Shown piece after piece: positions 61,590 to 63,777 of a DNA stretch of 64,000 nt. The notes below the pieces were generated by a model. That model did no database searches. It was given only the letters and a program-made list of their open reading frames with translations, and had not been told where the DNA came from. Made by a program: the position numbers and the translations under genes. The stretch covers positions 24,557 to 88,556 of the forward strand of contig JAZKAU010000003.1 in the NCBI GenBank assembly GCA_040388985.1, read 5' to 3'. Within the stretch, counting starts at the first letter, position 1; the number at the start of each line of letters is the position of its first letter. Source of the stretch: Patescibacteria group bacterium (GTDB taxonomy: Bacteria > Patescibacteriota > Minisyncoccia > Phycocordibacterales > Phycocordibacteraceae).

Positions 61590-61627
61590 GAGAAAACCCG
61601 CAGCCACGAGTGGCTGCGGGTTTTCTC
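61590..61627. terminator. Bidirectional terminator between thrS and the surface-protein gene
   Basis: gagaaaacccgcagccacgagtggctgcgggttttctc. Confidence 0.75.
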
Positions 61628-61650: not shown

Positions 61651-63777
61651 TTACCCCTGAGCTACGGCAAGAGCGCGGGTAAGTGCGAGCTTGATGCCCG
61701 TAATGCCCGTCGCGTAGCTTCCGTCGACGGCCGTCGTGAGGCTCGTTACGAGGCGCTCGAGGAACGGCGTCGCGCAGTGCGCGGTCGCGCGCTCGATGTC
61801 CTCGTGAACCGGCGTACCGTCGATGCGAGCGTGATACGCGTCATCGAGCGCCAGGATGGCGTGCGAGACGAACTCCTCGACATCATGTCCGGCCTGATTT
61901 ATGTGGCGGATAGTGGCAAAGACTGCGTCGCGCTCGCCGTCGAGTATCGAAGCGATGAACGACGTTATCTCAGGATGTACCGGCGCCGCTTCTGCCTTCG
62001 CGGTCGCCATAGAGGCCCGGCTCTCTGCAGGAGCTGCTGACTGCGGCATCTCGAGCTCTATCGGGTGCACGGCTGCCGTGGAAGGCAGGGTTGAGGGCTC
62101 AACAGCGTCTGCGACTTCAGTACGAGCTGGTTCGCTGGCGAACTGGATGCCGGACTCGCGCGAGAGTCCCTTGACGATGTCGTCGATAGTGAGCGCGTCG
62201 CTCGACGCAAAGGCCTTGAAGCCCTCGCCGTTCGTACGGGTGCGCGAAGGCGCGACGGTCGCATGAGAGAATACAGCGGGCTTCGATACCTGCGGCATAG
62301 CCGTTGCGACTGCTGCTGCGTGAATGGCCTGGTGACTTGAAGCCGCTACCGGCACCGAGTACGTATCGTGCTCGAAATGGGTGGGTTCAACTTCGTTTCC
62401 AGATGCAGTCGAGTGTAGCGTATCGCGTACCGACGCTCCGAATGTCGCTACCCTGCGACGCAGTACCGGCATGCCTCCGAAGAGGACGAGGTACGCGGCT
62501 GCGAGGCTCCAGATAGTAAGGATGGTCCAGTAGACGATCGTTCCGACAGGTCCCAGATCAAGACCGGTGTATGGGATCTGTGAGAGGTACACGCTTGCGA
62601 GCGGTGCCTCTGCCGGACGGTTGGTCGAACCGAAGATGACATGGCGACTGCTGTGGCTTCCGCCACCGCCTCCTCCGCCTCCTCCTCCCCCACCGCAGGA
62701 TCCAGTATCGCTACAGCTCGTGGTCTGTATCGTTACCGATGCCTGGCAGGAGTTATTGGCAGCAGCTCCGGGCACTGTACCGACGTAGGTCGTCGCTGCG
62801 GTCGGATGCACGATGGTCGAACCGGTGACGCCACTGAAGGTGCCAGTCGCCGTATTCGTGATGTTTATGGTGCTCGCATTCTGGAGAGTCCAGGTAAGGG
62901 TCACGTCCTGGCCGCCAGCGGGAATAGTCTGCGCGCTCGCCGTAAGGGTGAGACACGCTGGTACGCTCGTTGATGGCAGGATGTGGACGCTCGCCTGACA
63001 GTGGACGCTCTGCTTGCCGTCGGTGACCGTTGCCGTATACGTAGTATCGACGGTCGGACGGACGACGACGGTGCCATGGTCGGTTGGACTGACGAGGCCG
63101 ACTCCGTGATCGATGGTGATGGAAGTAGCATTCTCCGTCTGCCACGCCAGCGTCACTGCATCCCCGGGACTTATATTCTGCGGCGTTCCCGTAAGGAATA
63201 CGCAGCGCGCTACCGGTACTACGGGAGGTGGTGGAGGTGGAATAGGGATGATCGGAATGATCGGGATGATCGGAGTCGTCGGAGGTACCTGGACCGGCGT
63301 TGAACCGCCGCAGCAAGGTGACGTGAACGGACTGTCGACGGTTGGCGCGTTTATGGTTGGAATATCGTCAGTCGGAGGATTTGCATAGTCCTCATCGCCG
63401 CCATTACAGCAGGGTGACGTGAACGGGCTGTCGACGGTGGGCGCCTGAGTTCCGGAGGCATCCGTGCCATCGCTATCGGTCGAACCGGTAACGACGATTT
63501 CGTCCTTCTTCGTACCCGTGTTCGGGGTATTCACGGTGACCACCGGGAGCGTAGGGAGCAGGACAGGGGGAAGAAGTATCGGAGCAGGAGCAGGGGCTGG
63601 AGCAGGGGCTGGACTACCGATGACGACGATTGCGTCCGCGAGCGTCTTTGCCGGAGCGCTGAAACCGAAGATGAAGCCTGCCGCCGTTCCGGCGACAAGA
63701 ACGGCAAGCACGACGAACAGTCCGGTCCGTTGCGGTTTCGACGTATTCTTTGCGATGTAGCGTGTGATGTGTGACAT
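61651..63777 (-). CDS. Large repeat-rich bitopic surface protein
   Basis: The start is at internal Met MSHITRY (cat at 63775-63777). The product has an N-terminal TM anchor, a (PA)6 linker, an (IIP)3-PPPPPP tract, two homologous roughly 90-aa Ig-like repeats (TLAWQTENATSITI.../TLTWTLQNASTINI... each ending CQASV), a G14 run, an IPYTG motif followed by a TM helix and RRR, and a roughly 280-aa C-terminal domain. Confidence 0.6.
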   Translation of the reverse strand: MSHITRYIAKNTSKPQRTGLFVVLAVLVAGTAAGFIFGFSAPAKTLADAIVVIGSPAPAPAPAPAPILLPPVLLPTLPVVTVNTPNTGTKKDEIVVTGSTDSDGTDASGTQAPTVDSPFTSPCCNGGDEDYANPPTDDIPTINAPTVDSPFTSPCCGGSTPVQVPPTTPIIPIIPIIPIPPPPPPVVPVARCVFLTGTPQNISPGDAVTLAWQTENATSITIDHGVGLVSPTDHGTVVVRPTVDTTYTATVTDGKQSVHCQASVHILPSTSVPACLTLTASAQTIPAGGQDVTLTWTLQNASTINITNTATGTFSGVTGSTIVHPTAATTYVGTVPGAAANNSCQASVTIQTTSCSDTGSCGGGGGGGGGGGGSHSSRHVIFGSTNRPAEAPLASVYLSQIPYTGLDLGPVGTIVYWTILTIWSLAAAYLVLFGGMPVLRRRVATFGASVRDTLHSTASGNEVEPTHFEHDTYSVPVAASSHQAIHAAAVATAMPQVSKPAVFSHATVAPSRTRTNGEGFKAFASSDALTIDDIVKGLSRESGIQFASEPARTEVADAVEPSTLPSTAAVHPIELEMPQSAAPAESRASMATAKAEAAPVHPEITSFIASILDGERDAVFATIRHINQAGHDVEEFVSHAILALDDAYHARIDGTPVHEDIERATAHCATPFLERLVTSLTTAVDGSYATGITGIKLALTRALAVAQG
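62660..62697. repeat. Simple-sequence tract encoding poly-Gly (GGN x about 13) inside the surface-protein gene
   Basis: cgccaccgcctcctccgcctcctcctcccccaccgc. Confidence 0.8.
63225..63273. repeat. Tandem 9-nt repeats (gggatgatc/ggaatgatc) plus a ggaggtgg run, encoding IIPIIPIIP-PPPPPP
   Basis: Direct reading of the sequence. Confidence 0.8.
63581..63612. repeat. Tandem hexanucleotide repeats (gcaggRgct) encoding (PA)n
   Basis: ggagcaggagcaggggctggagcaggggctgg. Confidence 0.8.

Follow-up and report, generated by a model that had tools for sequence, protein, structure and literature searches.

The protein encoded at 61651..63777 on the minus strand of the window (the whole 64,000-nucleotide stretch of Patescibacteria DNA analysed here) belongs to a conserved, unannotated family of Patescibacteria, tiny bacteria of the candidate phyla radiation (CPR), in which a sortase-type sorting signal lies inside the chain, followed by a conserved cytoplasmic domain that resembles part of the clamp loader. 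An internal sortase-type signal and a clamp-loader-like intracellular domain in one protein is a combination without prior description. We favour, with moderate confidence, the interpretation that the protein is a dedicated sortase substrate, whose ectodomain would be transferred to the wall and whose membrane stub, with a putatively oligomerising clamp-loader-like domain, would remain.

The coding sequence is complete (708 aa plus stop, from the ORF and its translation) and forms one uninterrupted reading frame, real and intact. The initial annotation had allowed for a frameshift splitting the ORF, and none was found on checking; its description of the product as giant does not fit a length of 708 aa. 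The frame stays open as far as the window end, and the ATG at 63777 matches the N-termini of full-length homologues in the alignment. A gene fusion or frameshift artefact is ruled out because 79 loci and every long representative share the same architecture. Unless stated otherwise, the features described below lie on the minus strand.

A homologue search gave 106 homologues, about 99 of them family members, and relatives are encoded in about 230 species genomes of Patescibacteria (Paceibacteria). The databases contain no sequence near-identical to the 708-aa protein, and none above about 58% identity, and an exact look-up did not find the protein itself; searches of Pfam and NCBIfam (the latter at E ≤ 1) gave no match for the whole protein, and a word-index search with only the 70-aa sorting module gave no candidate homologues. 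The ectodomain is modular and fast-evolving, with 100–1040 aa preceding the motif among relatives, some of which bear CLIPPER/DUF11 domains, as Gram-positive surface proteins typically do. Conservation is concentrated in the sorting module (72% mean identity), in a cytoplasmic helix motif (79%) and in the C-terminal domain (63%), and the tail that follows PYTG measures 255–325 aa in nearly all relatives. Lacking a Pfam or NCBIfam model and mislabelled in some records, the family merits definition.

Residues 1–49 (63631..63777) comprise a basic N-terminus, a hydrophobic helix and the sequence A47-D48-A49, as seen from hydropathy, the AF2 model and the alignment. This first hydrophobic segment has its hydropathy peak at residues 17–43 and an AF2 helix at residues 15–36, so that the hydrophobic helix covers roughly residues 15–39. 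The AxA that follows it, overlooked in the initial annotation, resembles a signal-peptidase site, and AxA followed by Q or I is aligned across the full-length homologues (AFA-Q, ADA-Q, AEA-Q). Judged by these features, residues 1–49 are probably a Sec signal peptide, possibly a signal anchor, with cleavage predicted from the alignment at A47-D48-A49. Because the AxA site is conserved, a cleavable signal peptide is likelier than a permanent N-terminal anchor, and the bitopic topology proposed earlier, with such an anchor, is doubtful. Basic residues flank both hydrophobic segments of the protein on the cytoplasmic side in the hydropathy analysis.

The ectodomain contains 10 of the 11 Cys residues of the protein, which agrees with the proposed topology, as do the conserved Cys pairs of the Ig-like domains, the basic flanks and a DsbA-like gene in the window. 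It begins with a Pro/Thr-rich stalk, residues 50–189 (63211..63630), which is disordered in the AF2 model (pLDDT below 50) and which holds a (PA)5 run (63583–63612), two exact copies of PTVDSPFTSPCC (63406–63441 and 63310–63345) and a stretch of three IIP units with IP6 (63223–63270). The PTVDSPFTSPCC duplication, 12 aa in length and likewise missed earlier, occupies residues 113–124 and 145–156. A vicinal Cys-Cys motif of the stalk recurs among relatives as TSPCCT, PPCCT or GCC.

Two Ig-like β-sandwich domains follow, both assigned from AF2 and Foldseek; the first comprises residues 190–268 (62974..63210), with the Cys pair C192/C260, and the second residues 272–352 (62722..62964), with C275/C344. 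The view that these are homologous Ig-like repeats, each ending ...CQASV, is borne out by alignment and structure alike. The two domains give a local alignment score of 118, and each opens with Cys and closes with ...CQASV; the AF2 pLDDT is above 90 for both (91–98 in domain 1), and Foldseek matched the model to tandem Ig domains with E 3e-6 and prob 1.0. Their Cys residues are nearly invariant among homologues, and no Pfam Ig family matched at E ≤ 1. Between the second domain and the sorting module is a flexible linker, residues 353–395 (62593..62721), in which a C-x5-C motif is followed by a Gly12 run (62659–62694); AF2 shows disorder over residues 364–398. This Cys-flanked, Gly-rich linker (CTxNCGGGG...) is kept even in the most distant relatives.

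The sortase-signal-like module spans residues 396–443 (62449..62592) and consists of VYLSQ-IPYTG (residues 396–405), LDLGPVG, a TM helix and RRR. The pentapeptide IPYTG (residues 401–405; 62563–62577) is separated by 7 residues from the TM helix (residues 413–435; 62473–62541), for which hydropathy peaks at 413–439 and AF2 predicts a helix at 409–444, and RRR (residues 440–442; 62452–62460) comes after the helix. The initial annotation had picked out LSQIPYTG, the hydrophobic helix and RRR and had noted their internal position, correctly so: 303 residues follow PYTG and 266 follow RRR. Residues Y397, L398, S399, P402, Y403, T404, G405, L406, L408 and G409 are invariant in the alignment. Across the relatives P, T and G do not vary and the first position is I, V, L, M or T; a single PYTG is found in 96 of 99 relatives and xP[YQI]TG in 83 of 83 sufficiently long representatives, with motif counts of 52 for IPYTG, 13 for VPYTG, 6 for TPYTG, 5 each for LPYTG and MPYTG, and 1 for IPQTG. 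All full-length members examined have the internal xPYTG-TM module, its internal position being a fixed trait of the family. Sortase signals are defined as C-terminal, and the IPYTG module does not lie at the C-terminal end; we know of no described sortase substrate with a signal elsewhere. The NCBIfam LPXTG-anchor model did not match the protein (E ≤ 1).

The LPxTG-like character of the motif, suggested initially from the protein itself, is backed by the gene order of its relatives. Of the related loci, 48 have 4.5 kb or more of sequence upstream of the gene, and all 48 carry an intact sortase gene there, on the same strand. Its distance ranges from a 6-nt overlap up to 1746 nt, and in two divergent relatives only 5 nt (P0089) and 25 nt (P0097) separate the two genes. 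All 61 sortases compared have the catalytic His, Cys (in TLxTC) and Arg. The linked sortase matches the Pfam Sortase family and weakly resembles classes E and D; it falls under the cut-off of every NCBIfam class, the best being class E with 48 bits against a cut-off of 160. The window contains no real ORF with TLxTC, and it ends (64000) 223 nt upstream of the start codon of the surface-protein gene. No further ORF with a sortase-type signal occurs within ±10 kb of 84 loci or across the whole window, which suggests from gene content that the sortase and the surface protein form a one-enzyme, one-substrate pair. The linkage is embedded in a larger conserved housekeeping block (gyrB ... thrS-dnaE), and part of it could therefore be passive synteny. 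A SpaA-like protein near the sortase of locus L082, a CARDB protein and the hypothetical neighbour were also considered as sortase substrates, and none of them has a sorting signal.

On the cytoplasmic side, conserved elements are set among disordered linkers. The helix motif GFKAFAssdALTIDDIVKGLSRE, residues 519–541 (62155..62223), is modelled by AF2 as a helix with pLDDT of about 80, and its high identity compares with 20–30% in the flanking linkers; G519, F520, I531, D532, D533, I534, V535, G537, L538 and R540 are invariant. The C-terminal 107 residues, 602–708 (61654..61974), form a bundle of helices folded like domain III of the clamp loader, the helical collar of DnaX tau/gamma. Using hhalign, the first three helices of this domain were placed in register with DnaX (P 0.005) and a distant subfamily was found co-linear with lid plus collar (P 0.004); both tests are weak because each used a single template sequence, E. 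coli DnaX being the only domain III in the PDB. Distant relatives may carry lid plus collar, and Pfam gave no match to their extra cytoplasmic domain. The helix motif was examined as a relic of the last helix of an AAA+ lid, and hhalign between two subfamilies aligned only the collar.

Sequence relationships to the clamp loader are fainter than the fold. The Pfam collar families PF12169 (DNA_pol3_gamma3) and PF08542 (Rep_fac_C) were touched by only 3 and 2 of 28 members respectively, with E 0.03 or worse and far below gathering scores. A profile of the C-terminal domain found no DnaX and no meaningful match among PDB sequences. Run against 1.84 billion proteins, the profile gave only 483 matches, not the much larger DnaX family, and in each of the best 150 of the 483 the domain sits at the C-terminus or close to it, as in the family members. 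Since sequence similarity to DnaX reaches no database threshold, convergence could account for the resemblance to the collar. Neither Pfam nor NCBIfam gave an AAA-type match that would mark an AAA+ ATPase module, AF2 shows disorder in the stretch leading up to the C-terminal domain, and no dnaX gene is present in the window or in any related locus retrieved. The initial annotation had thought of an anti-sigma-like protein, an idea that finds neither an anti-sigma domain in the protein nor a sigma-factor gene close by and that is at odds with a collar fold; a single RskA_N match (E 0.28, one member out of 28) we regard as noise.

Taken as a dedicated sortase substrate, the protein would be a Sec-exported surface protein served by a neighbouring sortase encoded outside the window. 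Its ectodomain would be built from the Pro-rich stalk and its pair of Cys-Cys motifs, the two Ig-like domains, each clamped by a disulfide, and a tether rich in Cys and Gly, and would be retained at the membrane by a tripartite sorting signal of [I/V/L/M/T]-P-Y-T-G, TM helix and Arg cluster. The sortase cut is predicted between T404 and G405, with VYLSQIPYTGLDLGP as a candidate peptide for it, and would attach the ectodomain to the cell wall or to a different acceptor on the surface. The tail (disordered linker, short helix and 107-aa bundle) would persist after cleavage as a membrane stub; it may oligomerise or position the precursor on the cytoplasmic face, or recruit a partner there. An adhesin whose C-terminal domain is processed, as proposed earlier, comes close to this picture.

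Some features sit uneasily with cleavage. An internal signal conflicts with the C-terminal position that defines the cell-wall sorting signals known so far, and a tail that is just a cleavage leftover would not be expected to show the strongest conservation in the protein. Conservation also extends beyond the pentapeptide to the whole of VYLSQIPYTGLDLGPxGT and to TM residues, which fits a never-cleaved juxtamembrane element equally well. The protein might accordingly be a stable, uncleaved type-I or bitopic membrane receptor or scaffold, with PYTG and its flanks as a structural element, an Ig-like ectodomain that senses or binds outside, a clamp-loader-like domain that acts inside, and a sortase that serves other substrates. 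The internal signal, conservation that is highest in the helix motif and C-terminal domain, as expected of a protein working intact, and a sortase linkage lying within a broadly syntenic block all agree with this. However, the P/T/G pattern, TM spacing and basic cluster match sortase signals exactly, the sortase immediately adjoins the gene (5–25 nt) in distant relatives, and there is no other candidate substrate near any of the sortases; we consider the uncleaved protein possible but rather unlikely. The same tail can be read differently again, with the sortase cut as a signalling "site-1" step whose freed or activated stub, perhaps after intramembrane proteolysis, contacts the replication machinery or another AAA+ partner and ties envelope assembly to the cell cycle. 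Of the readings considered, it comes closest to the anti-sigma-like idea. It would draw on the stronger constraint on the tail than on the ectodomain, on the collar fold and the possible lid plus collar of distant relatives, and on dnaE, which adjoins the gene in nearly all related loci; there is also a parallel in Streptococcus gordonii, where a membrane signalling circuit senses the peptides that sortase A leaves behind after cleavage. We judge it improbable, as no anti-sigma domain, sigma factor or site-2 protease lies nearby, the protein has no AAA+ module, dnaX is in none of the loci retrieved, and the dnaE adjacency may be plain synteny. Similarly improbable is a transmembrane coupling device, in which the dedicated sortase would cut at PYT/G and send the Ig-like ectodomain to the wall, and the stub, with a DnaX-derived lid/collar, would join or tether the clamp loader or replisome, or form a collar-like ring of its own. 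Were this so, envelope growth would be linked to DNA replication in these ultra-small cells, and the fixed position beside dnaE would be meaningful, not incidental.

The DNA repeats had suggested hypermutable, slippage-prone tracts, and with them a phase- or length-variable adhesin arising from strand slippage in three tracts (GGN, 9-nt and PA-hexamer). All three repeats are present, with a run of 12 Gly and not 14, and (PA)5 plus P in place of (PA)6. Perfect tandem tracts of at least 14 nt do cluster here beyond chance, 3 of the 11 in the 64-kb window sitting in this 2.1-kb gene, and linker lengths vary between species. The tracts themselves, however, have no more than four perfect units and mixed synonymous codons. 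The (PA)5-P stretch is a perfect 12-nt unit ×2.2 at the DNA level; IIPIIPIIP is three imperfect 9-nt copies (88% matches), followed by IP6; and the Gly run mixes GGT, GGG, GGA and GGC codons, with (GGA)3.7 as its longest perfect tract. Across the gene the longest perfect tracts are the 12-nt unit ×2.2, a 9-nt unit ×2.2 and (GGA)3.7. Repeat units are all 3, 6, 9 or 12 nt, multiples of 3, so that on/off switching by length change is impossible, and the Gly-rich and Pro-rich linkers are architectural elements conserved family-wide. We conclude that the DNA repeats are ordinary linkers, and variation by slippage is very improbable. Least credible of all is the name "outer membrane protein", which the NCBI records give to the close homologues P0003 and P0005. 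It is contradicted by the domain anatomy and we reject it; the model shows α-helical membrane spans, Ig domains and, in the cytoplasm, a bundle of helices, no β-barrel or OmpA-like domain was found, and the label looks like an uninformative automatic name.

Among known systems, the LPXTG proteins and their sortases offer the closest comparison, in particular dedicated enzyme-substrate pairs: SrtB acts on its NPQTN substrate, for example, and the class GN ("marine") sortase on a single target. Shared with these are a probable N-terminal export signal, a variable Ig-like passenger, the order [hydrophobic]-P-x-T-G, TM and basic cluster, and, in the relatives, a co-oriented sortase gene next door, with His, Cys and Arg intact and apparently one substrate. 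Whereas LPXTG signals end a few residues past the basic cluster, about 266 conserved cytoplasmic residues follow here; Tyr is almost fixed at the x position, the flanks VYLSQ and LDLGP are invariant, and the host, unlike that of the known cases, is a Patescibacteria lineage. The exosortase, archaeosortase and rhombosortase systems (PEP-CTERM, PGF-CTERM, GlyGly-CTERM) have the same motif-TM-Arg layout and a preceding Gly-rich region, but the present proteins differ in having a PxTG motif, a sortase-fold transpeptidase in place of a polytopic membrane protease, and a signal that is not C-terminal.

Other parts of the protein have parallels of their own. Tandem β-sandwiches of ∼80 aa on an extended stalk are also seen in Ig-like (Big / I-set-like) adhesins such as intimin/invasin D0-D1 and the grappling-hook protein GhpA; in contrast to these, a Cys pair here joins the first and last strands of each domain. 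The C-terminal domain compares with the clamp-loader collars of DnaX tau/gamma, delta, delta' and RFC subunits and with the C-terminal domain of RarA/MgsA, but it stands without an AAA+ module, on a membrane protein, behind a sortase signal. Short tandem repeats inside a surface-protein gene are also a feature of the contingency loci in pathogens like Neisseria and Haemophilus, where the tracts are long, perfect and frame-shifting, whereas here they are short, imperfect and in-frame.

Literature searches returned only unrelated papers for IPYTG and nothing directly relevant on processed sortase signals; papers on CPR sortases refer to the enzymes and to "sortase motifs", and this surface-protein family is absent from them. 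The family is lineage-wide and single-copy, with an invariant internal sortase-type signal and a conserved cytoplasmic domain. If cleaved as predicted, it would widen the scope of sortases to a transmembrane protein that is split, one part going to the wall and the other staying in the membrane as a functional stub. To our knowledge almost nothing is known experimentally about the Patescibacteria cell envelope, for which the protein and its sortase are a candidate enzyme-substrate pair. A clamp-loader collar-like domain is unexpected on a surface protein and, if the resemblance reflects homology, would place this fold in a new context.

The neighbours of the gene in the window are thrS and dnaE, to which a hypothetical gene and the sortase are added in related loci; a DsbA-like gene is also present in the window. 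Between the convergent thrS and surface-protein genes lies a GC-rich palindromic hairpin (61590..61627, assigned to neither strand), flanked by A-runs and T-runs and with a terminator-like match on the minus strand, which by its sequence is probably a bidirectional terminator.

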